A stretch of 64,000 bases of DNA from IMG/VR virus record IMGVR_UViG_3300043256_000274, positions 1 through 64,000 of that record; one strand, written 5' to 3'. The stretch's first letter is position 1. Every line of letters starts with the position of its first letter. Positions 8,804-26,925 of this stretch are shown here, piece by piece. The DNA is from a virus. Position numbers and translations under genes: made by a program. The notes below the pieces were generated by a model. That model was given only the letters and a program-made list of their open reading frames with translations. It was not told the DNA's origin and did no database searches.

Positions 8804-9024
8804 TCGGTCATGTTCCTGTACTCAGGCCAGCCGCGAGCGATGGCGTCTAGGATGCAATCACCAGAGCAGTAAAGGCCTGCGAAAACGTCCGGATGGTAGT
8901 GGATGTCCGGCATCGCATCAGGGATGTCACGCTCGTCGTCATCACTGACGACAATGACGCTGTCTTTTGGTCGGAGGATCCGACCACACTCTGGGCATTG
9001 TGGACGCGGCTCATTCGGGTTCAC
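8800..9024 (-). CDS. Small zinc-finger-like hypothetical protein
   Basis: GTG start; CPECG...YCSGDC. Confidence 0.5.
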   Translation of the reverse strand: MNPNEPRPQCPECGRILRPKDSVIVVSDDDERDIPDAMPDIHYHPDVFAGLYCSGDCILDAIARGWPEYRNMTE

Positions 9025-9589
9025 CTTTGTCCTCCATTTCGAGCAACTCGCGTAGCTTCGCGCGCTGTTCGGCGGACATCTTCTCCATGTCGGCGAGACC
9101 CATGTCGACGTTGACATTCCGGTTCTCGACGACTTGCTTCTCTTTGAACTCGGGGCAGTGTCTTTTGAGGAGCAGGATCAAAAGCGGAGTGTCGTACTCC
9201 GTGATCGCTGCGTTGACGATGGTGCCGTCTTCGAGGGTGTCCTTGGCGCGGACGCCTTGGAAGTAGATCGGCTTGCGTGTGCCGAGGACGGCACGGCGGT
9301 AGGCTTCCTGGATGAGGCCGTCGCGGAATGCCTGCATCGCACCCTCGACGTCAGAGGCGAACCGCGGATCATCTTGGATGTGGCGCGTCACCGTCGCACG
9401 ATGTACGCCGATGATTCGGGCTGCAGCTTCGCGCTGGCCTCGAGCCTCACCTTCCAGGGCCGTGCAGTACGCGGCCTTGCGAGCGCGCGTGAATTCGGTG
9501 TTCAGGCACCCGCTGGTATTGGGACCGGTCTCGCCCACTTGCTTGCGCGGACCGCCAGACGTTCGCTTCCTGTCGCTGGCCTCACTCAT
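9011..9589 (-). CDS. Terminase small subunit
   Basis: HTH (AAARIIGVHRATV), EAYRRAV.G...PIYFQG, EYD..LLI.LLK..PE.F; upstream of terL. Confidence 0.8.
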   Translation of the reverse strand: MSEASDRKRTSGGPRKQVGETGPNTSGCLNTEFTRARKAAYCTALEGEARGQREAAARIIGVHRATVTRHIQDDPRFASDVEGAMQAFRDGLIQEAYRRAVLGTRKPIYFQGVRAKDTLEDGTIVNAAITEYDTPLLILLLKRHCPEFKEKQVVENRNVNVDMGLADMEKMSAEQRAKLRELLEMEDKGEPE

Positions 9590-9625: not shown

Positions 9626-9690
9626 GGGGATAGCGGGTGTGAGGCCCGAGAAGCCGGCCGGACCCTAGTCCAGCCGGCTTCACTCTTGGA

Positions 9691-9766
9691 TGGCTGGGGC
9701 GGTAGGCTTCGAACCCACAACCGTCCGGCTAACAACCGGGTGCTCTACCAGTTGAGCTACGCCCCA
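9691..9766 (-). tRNA. tRNA-Asn(GTT)
   Basis: TGGGGCG/CGCCCCA acceptor stem, TAGCTCAACTGGTAGAGC D arm, TTGTTAG anticodon loop, GTTCGAAG T loop, encoded CCA. Confidence 0.92.
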
Positions 9767-9770
9767 AGGG

Positions 9771-9891
9771 TGGCGGGGCCGGAGGGATTCGAACTATCCT
9801 CAATGTCTGGCCGGGGCGCCCCGGCTCATGACCACGTAGCGAACGTGCGGGATCGCCTCCGCCTATCGACGGTTCTTCCCGTAGCAGCCCC
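9771..9891 (-). ncRNA. 121-nt tRNA-like RNA of unknown class
   Basis: GGGGCTG/CGGCCCC acceptor stem plus G-CCA, GTTCGAATC T loop, four internal hairpins and no canonical anticodon arm. Confidence 0.6.
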
Positions 9892-10003
9892 AAGTTGTCA
9901 TCGCGGGGGGATCCCCCGGTCGGGACTGAGGAACCCGACCGGGGGCCGCGGCGCGAGAGGACCAGGAGGGCTCGCGCGGTCGGCAGTCTAAGACAGGGGA
10001 ATA

Positions 10004-10540
10004 CTACCTCACAGGCAGCCTTGCGGCAAGGCTGTCTGGGATCACTTGGATGTTGAGGTCTCTCAGGAGCGTGAAGCGCTCCTGAGAGAAACCATGCATT
10101 CGGCCGGTGCAGTGGTGCCACAGCATTTCGGCAGCGATCGAGTCACGCGAAGACATGAGGTCGTGAACATCGACGAACAGCGCGCGGTCCTTGAGGAGCT
10201 CCTTGGTGCGCCGGTAGTCGGAGTCGATCCGATAGCGGAGTGCCAGCGGCATGTGGCGCTTCTCGGCGAAGACGTTCCAGGAGAGGCTCGCGCCGGTGAG
10301 GACGACGAGCTTCGCCTCGGGGAAGATGCGCAGCGCTTCGTTGGGCATGTGGATGAGCCCAGTGTCAGCGTTGCCACAAGCTCTGCCTGGCAGAGCTTGT
10401 ATCCGCGTCCGTAGGTGGATCAGCGATCCACTTGAGTCCGCCAGCCCTTCGTGGAGGCAGAACGAGTCGGCGTAGGTGAGGAAGTTCGCGACCCAGGCTG
10501 TTCGGCTTCGCGGGCGAGCGAAGATGAGGAAGGTGTTCAT
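10004..10540 (-). CDS. Sulfotransferase-like P-loop protein
   Basis: N-terminal FLIFARPRSRTAW..N.L followed by CLHE, resembling the PAPS-binding loop. Confidence 0.6.
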   Translation of the reverse strand: MNTFLIFARPRSRTAWVANFLTYADSFCLHEGLADSSGSLIHLRTRIQALPGRACGNADTGLIHMPNEALRIFPEAKLVVLTGASLSWNVFAEKRHMPLALRYRIDSDYRRTKELLKDRALFVDVHDLMSSRDSIAAEMLWHHCTGRMHGFSQERFTLLRDLNIQVIPDSLAARLPVR

Positions 10541-11138: not shown

Positions 11139-11546
11139 CTACAAGCAACCTTCATGCTTTATTTCATCGCCGACTTTCATCTCGAAGCCGTGACCATAGT
11201 AGCCGTTGTGCCAGTTGTAGATGTGCAAGTACAACGTTTTCTTCGTCAAAAATAAGAAGCCACGCGGGCGCAGCTTGAAGATGGCGAATCCACCGCCATC
11301 ATCCGACTCTTCGCCTTCTTGAAAGAACGATGGGTCGAATTCATAGTTCTCCCAATCGGAGAAATCGCCTTCATCTTCGGTGCTGTTCCAACTGAGTTCC
11401 GTCATTGGCTCGTTCACGACGAGCCATCCGAAGTTCTCACATCAGCCGTGGTCAGCGTCGAAACCGACGAAGACGTTGTTCTCGTCAATCCAGTTGTAAT
11501 GGTTGCCCCAGTCGTTAGGGTTTTGCTTGCCTTCAAAGAACTTCAT
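11139..11546 (-). CDS. Hypothetical protein with in-frame TGA at 11442-11444 (candidate selenoprotein or nonsense mutant)
   Basis: ATG overlaps upstream stop; frame reads MKFFEG...DADHG*CENFGW...HNGYYGHGF with no frameshift; ORF track shows only the 3' part. Confidence 0.6.
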
Positions 11547-11754: not shown

Positions 11755-11910
11755 GCTCCAGTGAGGGTTGGCGTGGAGAGACGCCTACGTTTTACGCATC
11801 GGCCAGCTACGGTGCTCTGCCGGGACGAACCCGACTTCACCAGCCTTCCGTATCGGCTGCTCGTTTAGGCAACTGTGTCCCAGTACCAGCCGATGCCCCC
11901 TCGCCGGAGC
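11755..11910 (-). ncRNA. Candidate structured RNA
   Basis: Nested helices GCTCC/GGAGC, GAGGG/CCCTC, GCATCGGC/GCCGATGC, GGGAC/GTCCC, CAGCC/GGCTG, GGCGT/ACGCC. Confidence 0.5.
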
Positions 11911-12166: not shown

Positions 12167-12231
12167 GGTATCTGTCTTTCTTGTTGTCTGTGCGGGAGGG
12201 AGTCCCCCGCATGTCTAGACCAAACATACCA

Positions 12232-12260
12232 TGGGGTGGGGCGGAGAGTCGAACTCCATC
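12232..12260 (-). pseudogene. 3' fragment of a tRNA (His-like C discriminator)
   Basis: GGAG-TTCGACT-CTCC T arm, then GCCCCAC-C-CCA; 5' half absent. Confidence 0.5.
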
Positions 12261-12268
12261 TTCCGTGG

Positions 12269-12342
12269 TGGTCAGGGGGAGAGGATTCGAACCCCCGCCA
12301 GATGCGTCCGAAGCACCGATGCTACCGCTACACCACCCCCTG
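12269..12342 (-). tRNA. tRNA-Pro(CGG)
   Basis: CAGGGGG/CCCCCTG acceptor stem, GGTGC-TTCGGAC-GCATC anticodon arm, GGTTCGAATCC, ACCA end. Confidence 0.9.
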
Positions 12343-12495: not shown

Positions 12496-12537
12496 ATCCT
12501 ACCACCCTACAGGAGTGGTTGCAACCACTCCTGTAGG
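12496..12537 (-). promoter_or_regulatory. sigma70 promoter with its -35 centred in a perfect 32-bp palindrome
   Basis: TTGCAA-N17-TAGGAT with TGn; palindrome CCTACAGGAGTGGTTGCAACCACTCCTGTAGG at 12506-12537. Confidence 0.65.
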
Positions 12538-13577: not shown

Positions 13578-14333
13578 CTACTTAGGATGTTGCAAGTAGC
13601 AGTCTAGCACAAAGCGCTCGACACGTTCGACGTCGGGGGGCCCAAGGGAGGTCACGGATTCGAGCGTCTTGAGACGCTGCTCGAGATCGGCAGCTTCACG
13701 CAAGACTTCGTCCTGCGTGACCTTCCCGGTGCGGATGTCGATGATATGCTGTCGCACCGGCTCTGCCATAGGCAGCGTCAGCTTGCCGGTCGTGGCGAGC
13801 TCGATTCCCTGGTGGCCGAGGCGAATGATGTGGCCGGCGTACTTGGTGTCGAACCCGTAGCGTTCGATCAACTCGGGCCGGTTCGGCATCTTGACCTTAT
13901 CGGTGAGGCGCTTACGCTGCTGGATCATGTAGCCGAGGTACGGGCCGAAGAGGTTGTGGCTCACGAAGGCCTCCCGCATGGCGACGAGCTCTTGGCCGCG
14001 GTCGTCCATACTCACGACGAACTCAGGTGGCAGGAAGAGCAGGGTCAGGACCGTTGGGTTCCCCTTGAGCGCGAGCCTGCACCACTTGGCGAGGCTGTAG
14101 ATCGTCAAGTCGAGGTCTCCGGGTCCAGAACGCGCCCCTTCGGGTTGCGTTCTGTACGTCCACTGCTCGAATTTCGGGCGCAGGCCGAAGAAGTGTTCGA
14201 ACGGCTCCACACAGATCCCCATTTCGTCGCGGTCGTCCTGGTCGGCGACCGACAGGCCGTGGACGGTGGAGCCGACCACGCCGCGGAGGATCGTGTTGGG
14301 TTCAGCGAGTTCTTGGGCGTTGGGGTGGATCAT
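13578..14333 (-). CDS. RlaP/YcgL-like DNA polymerase beta-superfamily nucleotidyltransferase
   Basis: VGSTVHGL...DDRDEMGI, LALKGNP, FDTKYAGHIIRL. Confidence 0.85.
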   Translation of the reverse strand: MIHPNAQELAEPNTILRGVVGSTVHGLSVADQDDRDEMGICVEPFEHFFGLRPKFEQWTYRTQPEGARSGPGDLDLTIYSLAKWCRLALKGNPTVLTLLFLPPEFVVSMDDRGQELVAMREAFVSHNLFGPYLGYMIQQRKRLTDKVKMPNRPELIERYGFDTKYAGHIIRLGHQGIELATTGKLTLPMAEPVRQHIIDIRTGKVTQDEVLREAADLEQRLKTLESVTSLGPPDVERVERFVLDCYLQHPK

Positions 14334-23141: not shown

Positions 23142-23840
23142 TTAGCAATCACATTCCTTTTCGTCGTTGCGCCAGTTTTCAAGGTAGTCGGCGCAGTAGT
23201 CGTCGAGCCAGACCAGTGACTCCTGCAGCGGGCCGATCTGTTTCTTCTCCAGGTTCGACCCTCGGAACTCATCATCCTCGGAGAAGCGCCCACCCACGGT
23301 GTTGTAGGTGCTGAGTTTACAGATGCGCTCTAAGAGCCAATGCAATCGTCTTTCGGCTTTGCACTTCTCGGCCTCAGCTTCCTTCACCATGGAGTCTTTC
23401 ATGGTGTAGCGACTGATCGAGCGTAATTCCTCACGTTTCGGTTCCGCTTTGTCGAGGTTGGCGTTGGCAATTGCCACACGCCGGTCGGCGTGGGCAGTCG
23501 CATCCTCTTCGGTGTAGAAGAGCGTCTCTTCGCAGTACACGGAGCCTGACCCCACGCCAGTCTCGGTACACATATAGGCGACCTGCTCACTGGGCTTCCT
23601 CGCCGTGTCGGTTTGCACGGAACCGATAGTGAGCTCGCGAACGTAGGCTTGGTAGTTACGCAGGCCGAGAGTCTTTCGGCCGCGACATCGAGGACATTCG
23701 ACGTCGCCTTCTTCGCCACCGGGCGACTGCCAGGACCAGACGCCGGTACCCAGGCAGTCGGGACATGGCATCTTCTCGGTGCCGTCTATGTTCGAGCGGC
23801 CAAGCCACACTTTCTGTCCGATGTAGTAGATGGGGTTCAA
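23142..23840 (-). CDS. Protein with DnaJ-type zinc-finger motifs
   Basis: CPDCLGTG...CPRCRG; TTG start coupled to the ligase stop. Confidence 0.6.
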   Translation of the reverse strand: MNPIYYIGQKVWLGRSNIDGTEKMPCPDCLGTGVWSWQSPGGEEGDVECPRCRGRKTLGLRNYQAYVRELTIGSVQTDTARKPSEQVAYMCTETGVGSGSVYCEETLFYTEEDATAHADRRVAIANANLDKAEPKREELRSISRYTMKDSMVKEAEAEKCKAERRLHWLLERICKLSTYNTVGGRFSEDDEFRGSNLEKKQIGPLQESLVWLDDYCADYLENWRNDEKECDC

Positions 23841-24793
23841 AAGAGATCCTCCGCGAGTGCTTTCGTTGCCAGGACCACGCGGCCCTGTAGTCGTTTGAAG
23901 TCGATGGTAGCATTCTTGTGCTTCTTGAGGATGGCCCACATCTCCTCGTCGATGAGGTCGTGGAAGACGCGGCCGAGGAGTTGAGGAATGACCTTGTTGC
24001 GGTGTTCGGCTTCGATCTGCTGCTGCCAGTTGTTCTCCAGGCCGTCGATTCCATTGAAGACCTCGTTCGCGATATCAAGCACGACTTTCGCCCGCGTCTT
24101 CCCGACGAGCTCGGCCGTCACGAACTCCTCGGCGATGGCGACCTCGACTTGGAACTCGCCGTGCTTCTGCGCGTGCCCAAACGCACGCGCAGCCTCTTCC
24201 TTGAAGACGTTGCGAACGACCTTGGCCCATGGCGAACCAGCGGTTCGCCATGTGTAATTCTTCAGCACGACGCCCTCACCGAGGCCTGCGCCCTCCGCGA
24301 TCAGGTAGGTGTTGGTCTCCACTTGCGCCTTCAACTGCTCCTCAGAGGGATCTTGGATGGTGCAGAGGGGCTCGATGATGTCCAGTCCCTCTAGGACTTG
24401 AGAGTAGTGATCGTACGGGACGTAGGTCCCCTCGACTCGATCGTAGACGTCGAAGATCCAGAACTTCCGCCAGACCTCCTCGCGATAGGTCTTGAGCGTG
24501 TGCGGCACCATCCACTTGCCGTAGATGATCCAGTTAGGGTTGGCCGCGCACTCATCCCGCAGGGCTGTCGCCACCAGATCGTCGCTCATGACCCACGCAG
24601 CGAAGCCGGCGTTATCGTCGTCGGGTGTAATCTGGCGCCTACGCGATGCGCAGCGCATCGCGTCGCCGTCCCACCAAACTGAGGAGTTCGTCCCGTCCAG
24701 CTTAGGAAATACATGGACGAGCCCCATGTCGATGCCCTGGACGTTGCGATGCCCGAGGCGCTCCAGGTGGTCGTACTTCCGGAACTTAGTCAT
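23837..24793 (-). CDS. ATP-dependent RNA ligase (Rnl2-like)
   Basis: Motif I KLDGTN, ASR, FWIFDV, EGVVLK, AKVV; motif III reads YGKW rather than YGEW. Confidence 0.8.
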   Translation of the reverse strand: MTKFRKYDHLERLGHRNVQGIDMGLVHVFPKLDGTNSSVWWDGDAMRCASRRRQITPDDDNAGFAAWVMSDDLVATALRDECAANPNWIIYGKWMVPHTLKTYREEVWRKFWIFDVYDRVEGTYVPYDHYSQVLEGLDIIEPLCTIQDPSEEQLKAQVETNTYLIAEGAGLGEGVVLKNYTWRTAGSPWAKVVRNVFKEEAARAFGHAQKHGEFQVEVAIAEEFVTAELVGKTRAKVVLDIANEVFNGIDGLENNWQQQIEAEHRNKVIPQLLGRVFHDLIDEEMWAILKKHKNATIDFKRLQGRVVLATKALAEDLF

Positions 24794-25271
24794 TTCGGCT
24801 CTTTCGTCCAAGGATGTAGTCGGGGCGACGCTGGGCGTTGGGGGGACAGACGGCGAGGATGCGCCAGCCGTTCGATAGCTCATCCTGCAGCGTATCAGTG
24901 CAGGCGTCTTGCAGGTAGGTGACTTCGTCGATCAGCAGCAATCCAAGGTCCGGAATCGAAATCTGCACAGCGCAGTCCGCCGCCACTGCCTGCTCTGTGC
25001 TCTTATACTCGCTGAACTTATTGGACAACTGATCCTGCAGCCTGACGATCATCGTGCCCGTCTCACTGACCAGTGTGTCCTTGTCAATGGTGAATTCAAT
25101 CTCCAACTTATGGAGAGCCTGAATCTCTTCGATGCCACCCCAGAAAAGGCTGGCGTACTTCGGCTTGTCACCCTCGGGGAGTTGCGGAATGACCTCGCGC
25201 AGAGTGTCGTACTTCTCCTGCGGGAGTTCCTCCCACTTCCCCCAGGAGTGAATGCTGATAGGTAGGTGCAT
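24786..25271 (-). CDS. Hypothetical protein
   Basis: DACTD.LQ..L..GWRILAVCP....RRPDYILG. Confidence 0.65.
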   Translation of the reverse strand: MHLPISIHSWGKWEELPQEKYDTLREVIPQLPEGDKPKYASLFWGGIEEIQALHKLEIEFTIDKDTLVSETGTMIVRLQDQLSNKFSEYKSTEQAVAADCAVQISIPDLGLLLIDEVTYLQDACTDTLQDELSNGWRILAVCPPNAQRRPDYILGRKSRND

Positions 25272-25726
25272 TACTGAGTCAGGACTTTCAGTAGTTCGAT
25301 CTTGGCTCGGGTGTGTTTCTTCCAAGTCTCACCACCGGACTGCATGGTGAGCAAGTTGTGTCGGATGTCGGCCAGCTTTACCCGCTGGGCTATGGTCGAC
25401 GTTGCGATGATTCGTGCGACGTACTCGGGGTACTCCTCGCCGGCATCCTTGCGCCGAGTCATCGCGACGAGGGCGACAGCTTCTTCCTCCATGAGAGTCA
25501 TGCGTGCCTCATGAAGGTAGAGCGAAGTTCCATGTAGCTCGGCTTCTGTGTCTTCCAGGACGTCGTGCAGCACTCCGACGATCTGTGTTGGCTCTCCGTA
25601 CTCCTGTAGGGCAGCAGCCACAGCGAGCGGGTGTGTGATGTAAGGCTCGCCCTTCCATCGGAATTGATGCTCATGGGCAATAGCCGCGAATGCGATGGCC
25701 GAAGCAAGTCGTTGCTGGTTCTTCAT
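25271..25726 (-). CDS. RelA/SpoT-type HD hydrolase (small alarmone hydrolase-like)
   Basis: AH..Q.R..GEPYI.HP, LHDVLEDT, VKLAD..HN. Confidence 0.85.
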   Translation of the reverse strand: MKNQQRLASAIAFAAIAHEHQFRWKGEPYITHPLAVAAALQEYGEPTQIVGVLHDVLEDTEAELHGTSLYLHEARMTLMEEEAVALVAMTRRKDAGEEYPEYVARIIATSTIAQRVKLADIRHNLLTMQSGGETWKKHTRAKIELLKVLTQ

Positions 25727-26925
25727 CCCTTCACGCACACGATCTGCCTCAATTCAGTGACGATCTCGACCAGGTCTTCCTGGTTCTTCATCACCGTGTC
25801 GATGTCCTTGTACGCGGCCGGGATCTCATCGACCACGCCCGCGTCCTTGCGGCAGTCAACGCCGACGGTCTGCGCAGCCAGATCGTCGGCGGTAAACCGA
25901 TGCTTCGCTTCCGTCCTACTCATTCGGCGGCCGGCCCCGTGGGAACAAGACTCGAACGAGTCCTTGTTCCCACGTCCCCTCACGATGAATGACCGGGTGC
26001 CCATGCTACCCGGGATGATCCCGAGCTCACCTTCGCGAGCCGAGATGGCACCTTTGCGCGTGAGAATCACATTCGCTCCGAAGTGGTTCTCACGCGAAAC
26101 GTAATTGTGGTGGCAGTTGGTCCCTCCCGCGACGACCTTCATCTGGGGGAAATAGTGCTCGACTTCGGCGAGCACTATCTTCATCATCGCCTCGCGGTTC
26201 GCCAGCGCGTAGGACTGGGCCCAGGAAACAGCTTCGATGTAATCATCGAAGTCGCTCTCGCCTTCTGCAAAGAACGCGAGATCCTTGTCAGGCAGCGTGA
26301 TGAAGTAGCGCTCCATGAGCTCCTTCGCCCGAGAGATGAAGTAGTCGGCGATGACCTTGCCAATGTTGCGCGATCCGCTGTGCAGCATGATCCACACCGA
26401 CCCTTCGAGGTCGAGACAGATTTCGATGAAGTGATTCCCGCCCCCCAAGGTGCCAAGCTGCGAGTTCAGGTGTGCCGGCGACTTCCAGCGGATCTTCGGA
26501 TGCTTCTGGATGATCGGCTCCCAGGTGCGGTGGAGCGCGGCGAGATCGGCGAGCGGCTCGCCTCTCTTGCCGCGAGGCATATCCTCATGGCTGTTGAAGC
26601 CTACGGGGACGCTGCGCTCGATAGCGCAGCGTACCCGTCCCATGTTGTCAGGGAGATCCATTGTGTTCAGGTTCGTCTTCACGGCCATCATCCCACAGCC
26701 GATGTCGACGCCAACCGCGGCGGGAATCACCGCACGCTTCGCGGCGATTACGCTCCCAACCGTCGCACCCATCCCCCAATGCACGTCGGGCATCGCCGCG
26801 ATGTGCTTGTGAATGAACGGCATGGCAGCGAGGTTTCGGAGCTGCTGCAGCGCCGAATCCTCGATGTCCTCAGTCCAAATCTTGATGGCCGTACCATCGG
26901 TCGGCGGTAGAACAAGTGCAGGCAT
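25723..26925 (-). CDS. rtcB: RtcB RNA ligase
   Basis: MPDVH.G.G, VGVDIGCG, LGGGNHFIE, HSGSR, HHN, IPGSMG, HGAGR, AYKDI. Confidence 0.95.
   Translation of the reverse strand: MPALVLPPTDGTAIKIWTEDIEDSALQQLRNLAAMPFIHKHIAAMPDVHWGMGATVGSVIAAKRAVIPAAVGVDIGCGMMAVKTNLNTMDLPDNMGRVRCAIERSVPVGFNSHEDMPRGKRGEPLADLAALHRTWEPIIQKHPKIRWKSPAHLNSQLGTLGGGNHFIEICLDLEGSVWIMLHSGSRNIGKVIADYFISRAKELMERYFITLPDKDLAFFAEGESDFDDYIEAVSWAQSYALANREAMMKIVLAEVEHYFPQMKVVAGGTNCHHNYVSRENHFGANVILTRKGAISAREGELGIIPGSMGTRSFIVRGRGNKDSFESCSHGAGRRMSRTEAKHRFTADDLAAQTVGVDCRKDAGVVDEIPAAYKDIDTVMKNQEDLVEIVTELRQIVCVKG

Follow-up and report, generated by a model that had tools for sequence, protein, structure and literature searches.

A candidate non-decoding tRNA-like RNA gene in a variable tRNA slot upstream of terS in a phage from marine sediment

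The stretch of DNA analyzed here (the window) covers the initial 64 kb of a virus record of IMG/VR with a total length of 76,410 bp (IMGVR_UViG_3300043256_000274), to which CheckV assigns a completeness of 100%. All the likely genes of the window are on the minus strand, and public contigs placed on the region under study point to a marine sediment metagenome as the source sample. At 9771..9891 (minus; nt 1 = 9891, nt 121 = 9771) lies a tRNA-shaped RNA gene of 121 nt, present as a single copy in the 76.4-kb genome. The order around this element is: a hydrolase-like gene upstream of it (10540..10004, minus; phrog_10855), a promoter-like site, two leader hairpins, the element itself, a tRNA-Asn gene, a hairpin of 14 bp, the small terminase gene terS (9589..9011, minus; phrog_4044), and then DUF1353, terL and portal genes. 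The element is filed as a phage-encoded, non-decoding tRNA-like RNA that is a member of no described family, and we consider it probable that it is a real RNA gene of this non-decoding kind.

The upper half of the element resembles that of a tRNA. The 5′ strand of the acceptor stem, GGGGCUG (nt 1–7; 9885..9891, minus), forms 7/7 pairs with CGGCCCC (nt 111–117; 9775–9781), one of them being U6-G112. The 3′ strand, the discriminator G118 (G73 in tRNA numbering) and an encoded CCA (nt 119–121) occupy 9771..9781 (minus). The T arm, GAGG-AUA-G-UUCGAAU-C-CCUC (nt 91–110; 9782..9801, minus), displays the T loop GUUCGAAUC at nt 98–106, with G98-C106 as the closing pair, on a stem GAGG/CCUC. So, the element has the T-loop consensus GUUCRANYC, the 7-bp acceptor stem, the discriminator and the CCA of a tRNA, with a T stem that carries a 3-nt AUA bulge. 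The base at position −1 is U, which is the usual one in bacterial RNase P substrates. The 7-bp acceptor stem, this U and the 3′ GCCA are determinants of 5′ processing by RNase P, an enzyme for which the original prediction had proposed the element as a substrate.

Concerning the lower half, both the minimum free energy (MFE) and the centroid folds give a five-way junction of acceptor stem, domain A, hairpin B, rod C and T arm. Domain A (nt 11–44; 9848..9881, minus), at the position of the D arm, consists in both folds of a CGGGA/UCCCG stalk that encloses CCGUC-GAUA-GGCGG. Hairpin B (nt 45–59; 9833..9847, minus), as drawn in the MFE fold, is CACGU-UCGCU-ACGUG, with 5 bp and a 5-nt loop. Rod C (nt 60–87; 9805..9832, minus), delineated by the fold, by a relative on contig X2 and by an alignment to an RNA of locus L087 (both described below), has 11 bp, the bulged A63 and A66, and a GCGC tetraloop. 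All six helices of the molecule are free of mismatches, including those of the extra ~45 nt, and the loops of the predicted fold measure 4, 4, 5 and 6 nt. The original prediction had recognized the 121-nt tRNA-like RNA with its 7/7 acceptor stem, G118, CCA and GUUCGAAUC loop on a bulged stem, and its place 4 nt upstream of tRNA-Asn, and these are all read here as well. It had also drawn four internal hairpins, which cannot all form because C45 is used by both CCGC and CACGU. The CACGU/ACGUG hairpin is kept, and so is GCCGGG/CCCGGC, though as part of something longer than claimed, namely the 11-bp rod with its two bulged A (nt 60–87). The ACGG/CCGU and GCGG/CCGC hairpins (nt 10–45) are retained only as an alternative to the MFE fold, which nests CCGUC/GGCGG inside CGGGA/UCCCG.

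The bottom half is an 11-bp rod with a tetraloop plus two extra hairpins, and since this replaces the usual bottom half of a tRNA, the molecule has no anticodon and cannot read a codon. The loop of hairpin B has 5 nt (4 nt in the X2 relative) and the rod ends in a tetraloop, so that no anticodon loop is present, and none of the hairpins forms an anticodon arm of the usual kind, whose 7-nt loop has U33 and, at position 37, a purine. It has been considered whether the element might yet be a working decoder, whether a tRNA interrupted by an intron or by some other insertion, a suppressor, or a tRNA-Sec for a TGA codon in the gene at 11546-11139. The only loop that can be opened to 7 nt, by leaving U49-A55 unpaired, reads UUCGCUA, with U33 and CGC as the “anticodon”, and there is an in-frame TGA 1.6 kb away. 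Against this, the loop so opened would place U at position 37 and is one base shorter in the X2 relative, the triplets UCA, CUA and UUA occur in no loop of the element (the single UCA sits in the rod stem), and with G3:C70 and G73 the element lacks the G3:U70 pair of alanine tRNAs. ARAGORN in its default mode did not call the element a tRNA, and its relaxed and intron modes gave only junk models with 4/7 acceptor pairs. No tmRNA was called in its tmRNA mode, even with the threshold set at 70%. In Rfam, with the gathering score as well as with E values up to 10, there was no match of the element to the models of tRNA (RF00005), tRNA-Sec (RF01852) or tmRNA. As to tRNA-Sec in particular, UCA lies in the rod stem, the acceptor stem has 7 bp, the geometry is not 8/5 and RF01852 is silent. 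The idea of a decoder is therefore largely refuted, and we give it hardly any credence. The earlier statement that the element is not an ordinary tRNA, a tmRNA or an alanine-type molecule thus holds, with no call as a known tRNA, an intron-containing tRNA or a tmRNA by ARAGORN or by Infernal with Rfam.

To judge how often such an arrangement arises by chance, both strands of 0.94 Mb of phage DNA were scanned for candidates of 60–150 nt in total that combine a 7/7 acceptor stem with a T arm, which was permitted to carry a bulge. Every match with CCA was either a tRNA called by ARAGORN or the element itself, and about 10 random-looking matches were obtained, none of them with CCA. The expected number of chance matches with CCA is ~0.01 per 64-kb window, before counting the adjacency, within 4 nt and on the same strand, of a tRNA gene. 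The combination of acceptor stem, T arm and CCA is not a chance feature. The tRNA hallmarks are a stronger argument for a non-chance origin than the folding energy is. Rod C folded alone has a z-score of −3.35, and 0/200 shuffled sequences fold as well as it does.

Two relatives of the element were found, the X2 contig and the rod-bearing RNA of L087. The first is a 151-nt contig of depth 3 from a second study (marine metagenome), which matches 9767-9859 with 13 mismatches and 2 gaps, that is, ~86% identity over the 3′ 93 nt of the element. The changes are known from a difference list that comprises 8 substitutions, the other 5/13 mismatches, near the ends of the matching pieces, being unlisted. 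All eight listed substitutions and one of the two deletions are in the rod. The pair G72-C77 is changed to C-G, which is compensatory, while G67-C82 becomes the wobble pair G-U and U64-A84 becomes U-G. The bulged A63 is replaced by C, which is able to pair with the new G84, the GCGC loop is UCGA, and G65 is lost. The sole listed change that breaks a pair is G60-C87 to a G-G mismatch. With the listed changes introduced, the rod still folds, at −13.7 versus −17.5 kcal/mol. The other deletion (9841) shortens the loop of hairpin B from 5 to 4 nt.

The second relative belongs to a pair of RNAs located in tRNA islands of related phage contigs, L087 (2286-2383) and L085 (263-358), whose TerS proteins are 59–63% identical to that of the phage studied here. 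They are tRNA-Glu-like RNAs of 95–98 nt whose D arm is of the tRNA-Glu type and whose variable loop has 4 nt, and in them a 38-nt rod replaces the anticodon stem-loop (CCUGG, A, UU, an internal loop, 6 bp, a tetraloop, AA, CCAGG). The Rfam tRNA model accepts neither of the two, and ARAGORN labels the L085 copy as a 95-nt tRNA-Ala(UGC). The L087 RNA coincides with nt 82–112 of the element at 26/31 positions. Its T arm, GCGG-AUA-G-UUCGAAU-C-CCGC, is of the same design, with the pair A92-U109 of the element changed to C-G. The match runs on through the 3′ strand of the rod, which in L087 is the 3′ strand of the anticodon stem, and the two rods have a layout in common: stem, bulged A, 2 bp, loop, 6 bp and tetraloop. 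Because the match extends through that strand, the rod of the element is taken to correspond, probably, to the anticodon arm, with the 3 nt AUU forming a short variable loop. It is to be noted that the RNAs of L087 and L085 differ from the element in that their junction is four-way, their D arm is an ordinary one of the tRNA-Glu type, their acceptor stems have 6 bp and the CCA is not fully encoded, and that the 5′ half of the element is without a counterpart in them. Within this phage group, they would seem to make up another type of tRNA-like RNA that does not decode. Since the X2 rod still folds and the T arm of L087 presents a compensatory pair, the element is counted as conserved to some extent, with its structure kept. 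The support from covariation touches the rod and the T arm, domain A being drawn from the folds alone. The collection of homologues suggested in the original prediction has yielded these two relatives only, in which the pairing of rod and T arm is kept while the 5′ 32 nt of the element are unmatched in X2.

Secondary structure considered in isolation would equally allow another assignment, in which hairpin B is the anticodon arm and the rod is the long variable arm of a class II tRNA. According to this explanation, the element would be an aminoacylatable mimic of a class II tRNA, charged with serine by seryl-tRNA synthetase (SerRS) through G73, the pairs G1-G3:C70-C72 and the long arm, and used outside the ribosome or as a sponge for an enzyme or toxin specific for tRNA-Ser. 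SerRS ignores the anticodon. The topology is indeed that of class II tRNAs (Ser, Leu, Tyr, Sec) and allo-tRNAs, with five helices around one junction and a long extra arm, and the element has a GC-rich acceptor stem and a G73 as in tRNA-Ser and tRNA-Sec. The alignment to L087 places the rod at the anticodon arm, followed by the 3-nt variable loop, and not at the variable arm. In addition, there are zero nucleotides between hairpin B and the rod, where class II tRNAs have positions 44–45, the over-sized domain A bears little resemblance to the D arm of class II tRNAs, the 7-nt anticodon loop is missing, the acceptor/T geometry is neither 8/5 nor 9/4, and the Rfam models of tRNA and tRNA-Sec give nothing. 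So, of the serine-type elements previously claimed, G73 stands and the long arm is uncertain, and charging with serine seems improbable. A further point in its favor is the occurrence among the neighboring genes of RlaP, a 3′-end nucleotidyltransferase (activity described in bioRxiv 10.64898/2025.12.29.696909).

The surroundings of the element are those of a tRNA gene. The promoter-like site TTGCCG-N17-TAGTAT (10001..10029, minus) overlaps the end of the upstream hydrolase gene, its TAG doubling as the stop codon of that gene. Between this site and the element there are the two leader hairpins, one of them with 12 bp (9913..9945, minus). The element is separated by the 4-nt spacer CCCU (9767..9770, minus) from tRNA-Asn(GUU) (9691..9766, minus; called by ARAGORN and scored at 57.4 bits by the Rfam tRNA model), with which it is probably co-transcribed. 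On the 3′ side of tRNA-Asn lies the GC-rich hairpin of 14 bp (9650..9681, minus), which is terminator-like, without a U run. At the matching gene end of locus L083 (402-430) there is TTGCGT-N17-TAGGAT, followed by a leader hairpin analogous to that of the element, an ordinary tRNA-Met, a hairpin and then terS. In L086, the slot before terS contains a terminator hairpin only. In the window, TTGCAA-N17-TAGGAT is found ahead of a tRNA-Pro island (~12496-12525, minus). The pattern TTGCnn-N17-TAG(G/T)AT thus recurs before tRNA islands, with TAG as the stop codon of the hydrolase gene in two cases, and may be a phage promoter type for its own RNA genes. A consensus promoter scanner leaves TTGCCG-N17-TAGTAT unflagged, as 8/12 positions match and the cut-off is 9. 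As the promoter-like site recurs in L083 before a normal tRNA-Met, the element stands where a tRNA gene stands, and its place is to be described, as judged from these loci, as a tRNA slot of variable content, driven by a promoter and bounded by the hydrolase gene and terS.

The position of the element directly upstream of the small terminase gene, together with its richness in inverted repeats, would also be expected of a DNA-level element, such as a pac or cos site or an attP-type tRNA fragment, which would not be an RNA gene at all. Fragments of tRNA 3′ ends lacking the 5′ half are in fact common at integration sites. In a pattern scan of GTDB, 14 matches were obtained, all of them coding sequence or tRNA 3′-end fragments without a 5′ partner within 420 nt, and the latter are probably integration-site remnants rather than homologues. 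In the element, by contrast, both acceptor strands are present and pair perfectly, the T-loop consensus and the CCA are features of the RNA level, the strand and spacing fit a tRNA operon, and the same slot of L083 holds a plain tRNA. We regard a pure DNA function as the least credible of the explanations considered, and very nearly dismissible.

Other searches delimited the distribution of the element. With blastn against GenBank phages, queries of 351 and 121 nt retrieved tRNA-Asn only, or nothing, and the RNA of L087 retrieved nothing. Pattern scans of IMG/VR with a 29-mer, a 16-mer of the T arm, an 18-mer of L087 and a 17-mer of the 3′ end gave no relative, the four matches of the 16-mer and the two of the 17-mer being unrelated. 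Searches of IMG/VR with the two flanking proteins and with a terS alignment gave no relatives either. The closest large-terminase match there is 58% identical, so this database contains no close kin of the phage. The combination of nhmmer and blastn did not find the element in 80 loci of terL relatives, and with the covariance model R1 the E values never improved on 0.2, whether the search covered 52 loci or 36 whole viral records. A large protein database provided 20 TerS homologues with 56–81% identity, several of them encoded on contigs of 66–75 kb, and an alignment-based scan of metagenome contigs of JGI and NCBI provided seven loci.

Taking these results together, we hold with moderate confidence that the best explanation of the whole is a genuine, lineage-specific RNA gene, derived from a tRNA and no longer decoding. 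The element is counted as real because the 7/7 acceptor stem, G73-CCA, the canonical T loop and U at −1 are intact, and because it lies 4 nt from tRNA-Asn, on the same strand, between leader hairpins and a terminator-like hairpin. Several points weigh against it. The element is known here from DNA sequence alone. The folding energy of the whole molecule is unremarkable (z −1.69). The covariation would stem from one low-depth contig of 151 nt and one distant relative. In X2, nt 1–32 of the element are unaligned, and the further 34 nt of that contig did not match them. The element is also absent from the 36 more distant viral relatives. Finally, the tRNA island contains decaying tRNA-like pieces, so that a non-functional relic has to be taken as a real possibility.

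The relic in question would be a decaying or chimeric pseudo-tRNA, left behind by recombination in a tRNA island that changes quickly. It might still be transcribed and processed, yet it would have no function of its own. Genes for tRNA do come and go in the slot that separates the hydrolase gene from terS, with tRNA-Met in L083 and none in L086. A dead 3′ fragment of an RNA of the L085 type is present in the window after tRNA-Pro (~12228-12262). The acceptor stem of L085 has an A-C mismatch and the distal hairpin of L087 has two uncompensated changes. Moreover, MAFFT aligns nt 17–29 of the element with the 5′ end of the L087 RNA, as if an old acceptor strand had been internalized, and the modest z-score of the whole fold is what a relic might give. 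On the other hand, all of the helices of the element, including those of the extra ~45 nt, are free of mismatches, and its acceptor stem is 7/7 with an encoded GCCA. The pairing of the rod survives eight substitutions and one deletion in X2, and the extra hairpins of the element are not copies of a genomic repeat family. It seems reasonable to regard the relic as the main alternative to a functional gene, doubtful yet serious.

The fragment after tRNA-Pro deserves a description of its own. At 12228-12268 (minus), directly after tRNA-Pro (12342..12269), there is a tRNA 3′-half remnant, GGAAGAUGGAGUUCGACUCUCCGCCCCACCCCA, made up of a T arm and an acceptor 3′ strand with no 5′ partner, which corresponds to roughly the last 40 nt of an RNA of the L085 type. 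Its alignment is to the 3′ portion of the rod RNAs of L085 and L087, and it is followed by the same downstream gene. An L085-type RNA seems to have been truncated at this site, perhaps upon the arrival of tRNA-Pro.

If the element is a functional gene, as favored above, a phage promoter in the variable slot ahead of terS would drive the element and tRNA-Asn as one transcript. By analogy with known tRNA processing, RNase P would cut at G1, and its release of tRNA-Asn would leave the CCCU trailer on the element, to be trimmed by exonucleases down to the encoded CCA. RNase P substrates have been reviewed (PMC11143913). The product, as read from its letters, keeps the top half of a tRNA, in which the acceptor stem stacks on the T arm and terminates in GCCA. 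In the weakest step of this scheme, suggested by the genomic context, the mature RNA would act as a tRNA mimic for a protein whose target is the acceptor/T half or the elbow, and the rod and the extra hairpins would lend specificity to this mimicry. Two observations on the precursor are the similarity of the acceptor stems of the element (GGGGCUG/CGGCCCC, G73) and of tRNA-Asn (UGGGGCG/CGCCCCA, G73), and the predicted fold of the precursor (9640-9995, minus), in which the 5′ strand of the element pairs with the 3′ strand of tRNA-Asn. The likeness of the acceptor stems may reflect common descent, or may have a bearing on the order of processing.

Concerning known systems, RNA C and RNA D of phage T4 are suggested as the nearest functional analogues. 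The genes rnaC (139 nt) and rnaD (119 nt) are in a tRNA cluster, on the tRNA strand and a few nt from a tRNA gene (tRNA-Arg), and RNA C has a canonical T arm, CCGGG-UUCGAAU-CCCGG, long extra hairpins and no anticodon call. The element coincides with them in belonging to a phage tRNA cluster, on the tRNA strand, with a tRNA-like T arm and as a non-decoder, which makes for a functional class and not for a homology family. In contrast to the element, the ends of rnaC pair imperfectly and there is no encoded CCA. The host group and the genome type also differ, and no homology to rnaC or rnaD was detected, either with the covariance model R1 on the T4 locus (L094) or with blastn against GenBank phages. 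T4 rnaC (L094:1409-1547) itself, in which the T arm is perfect, folds far better than shuffled sequences do (z −4.57). Neither rnaC nor rnaD is represented by a family in Rfam, the best match of rnaC being to tRNA-Sec with 17.5 bits. The roles of RNA C and RNA D are still without assignment (PMC3014915).

The tRNA-like domain of tmRNA and the Y RNAs of the YrlA type offer another comparison, which has led us to consider the element as a mini-tmRNA, or as an end-permuted, Y-RNA-like scaffold that recruits SmpB and the ribosome, or a Ro/Rsr-type or repair protein. In the second version, it would be a circular permutation of YrlA, in which the chain begins and ends at the acceptor stem and a loop caps the rod. 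The outline of a top half plus a rod does match both models. The tRNA-like domain of tmRNA, a molecule processed by RNase P (PMC11143913), combines an acceptor stem and T arm with a CCA at its 3′ end, and a long helix stands in for its anticodon arm. YrlA, which occurs in bacteria and mycobacteriophages, is a tRNA mimic (T and D arms, acceptor-like stem) joined to a long helix; that of M. smegmatis is cleaved by RNase P and receives CCA (PMC4201824), and YrlA is linked to RtcB RNA-repair operons, such as those of Salmonella (PMC4201824, PMC7790460). The rod base of the element, GGUC-A-UG/CA-GAC, is even slightly like the Ro-binding helix GGUCCGA. However, the element has neither the G3:U70/A73 alanine identity, nor a tag reading frame or other mRNA-like part, nor the pseudoknots of tmRNA, it measures only 121 nt, and the tmRNA mode of ARAGORN was negative. 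In YrlA, the chain ends belong to the Ro-binding helix and it is the acceptor stem that a loop closes, the reverse of what is seen in the element, and every defining feature of YrlA that could be tested fails. The YrlA model RF02553 scores 16 bits against a threshold of 69, and this on a different stretch (9741-9803 only). The Ro-binding motif GNCGAAN0-1G is absent from the element, which has GUCGAU and GGCGAU instead, and no match to TROVE/Ro was obtained in the whole 76-kb genome. An explanation along either of these lines is very unlikely.

With regard to function, the phage does encode, as previously proposed, an RtcB (25726-26844), an RNA ligase (23837-24883) and a nucleotidyltransferase, RlaP (13578-14333), and in addition an HD_4 protein (25271-25738). 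The RNA-repair gene nearest to the element is 3.7 kb away from it. RlaP enzymes add one or two nucleotides to the 3′ ends of damaged RNA and help to restore repaired tRNA (bioRxiv 10.64898/2025.12.29.696909). The RtcB, RNA ligase, RlaP and HD genes suggest that the element might be a decoy, a sponge or an adaptor in a tRNA-centered conflict, with the top half possibly serving as the decoy or adaptor. Because of these repair genes, a decoy or adaptor role in the conflict between phage and host is ranked first among the functions, even though it stays tentative. What speaks against carrying it further is that a partnership with RtcB, the ligase or RlaP would be deduced solely from their co-occurrence in one genome. 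The initial suggestion that the element serves as a decoy for anticodon nucleases is unlikely, since it offers these enzymes no suitable loop to cleave: a 7-nt anticodon loop is missing, and the sole candidate loop loses a base in X2. A bolder version, which is speculative and less probable than either the general decoy or adaptor role or the relic, would have the element as a purpose-built mimic of the tRNA top half, with the rod and the hairpins as a binding platform. It would neutralize a defense enzyme of the host that attacks or modifies the acceptor end or the elbow of tRNAs, e.g., the nucleotidyltransferase toxins of the MenT/AbiE type, or it would be the RNA subunit of the RtcB/ligase/RlaP kit of the phage, as a chain-permuted analogue of Y RNA. 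Together with the sister rod RNAs, it would then represent a new class of phage tRNA-mimic counter-defense RNAs.

Non-decoding tRNA-shaped RNAs have been known since the description of T4 RNA C and RNA D in the 1970s, and phage tRNA genes are now regarded as weapons in the conflict over the cleavage of host tRNA. In this context, the element offers a clean case, with an intact acceptor/T half and encoded CCA, a replaced bottom half, a sister design in related phages and four RNA-repair genes in the same genome. If it were true that a defense or repair enzyme binds it, this would be the first function for a neglected class and a new RNA-based form of counter-defense. If it were a relic, it would illustrate the decay of tRNA islands and the existence of products that gene finders miss.

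Some minor observations complete the description. Isolated pieces of the GGAUAGUUCGAAUCCCNCC...GCCA or ACCA type were encountered in L096, L105 and L108 (metagenome-assembled genomes, MAGs, of Acidobacteriota), L100 (a Spongiibacteraceae MAG), and L091 and L093 (IMG/VR), none of which is called as a tRNA or has a 5′ strand to complete the acceptor stem within 420 nt. Probably, they are remnants of integration sites. Upstream sequence is also conserved among the three copies of the Acidobacteriota. In the frame 11546..11139 (minus) of the window, there is an in-frame TGA at 11435-11437 (...GAC CAC GGC TGA TGT GAG...); a tRNA-Sec decoder for this codon was considered and rejected, as no RNA in the window offers a UCA anticodon. 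Within the same RNA island, an intergenic stretch for which Rfam at gathering score gave no match (11755-11910, minus), located between two small genes, is highly self-complementary.

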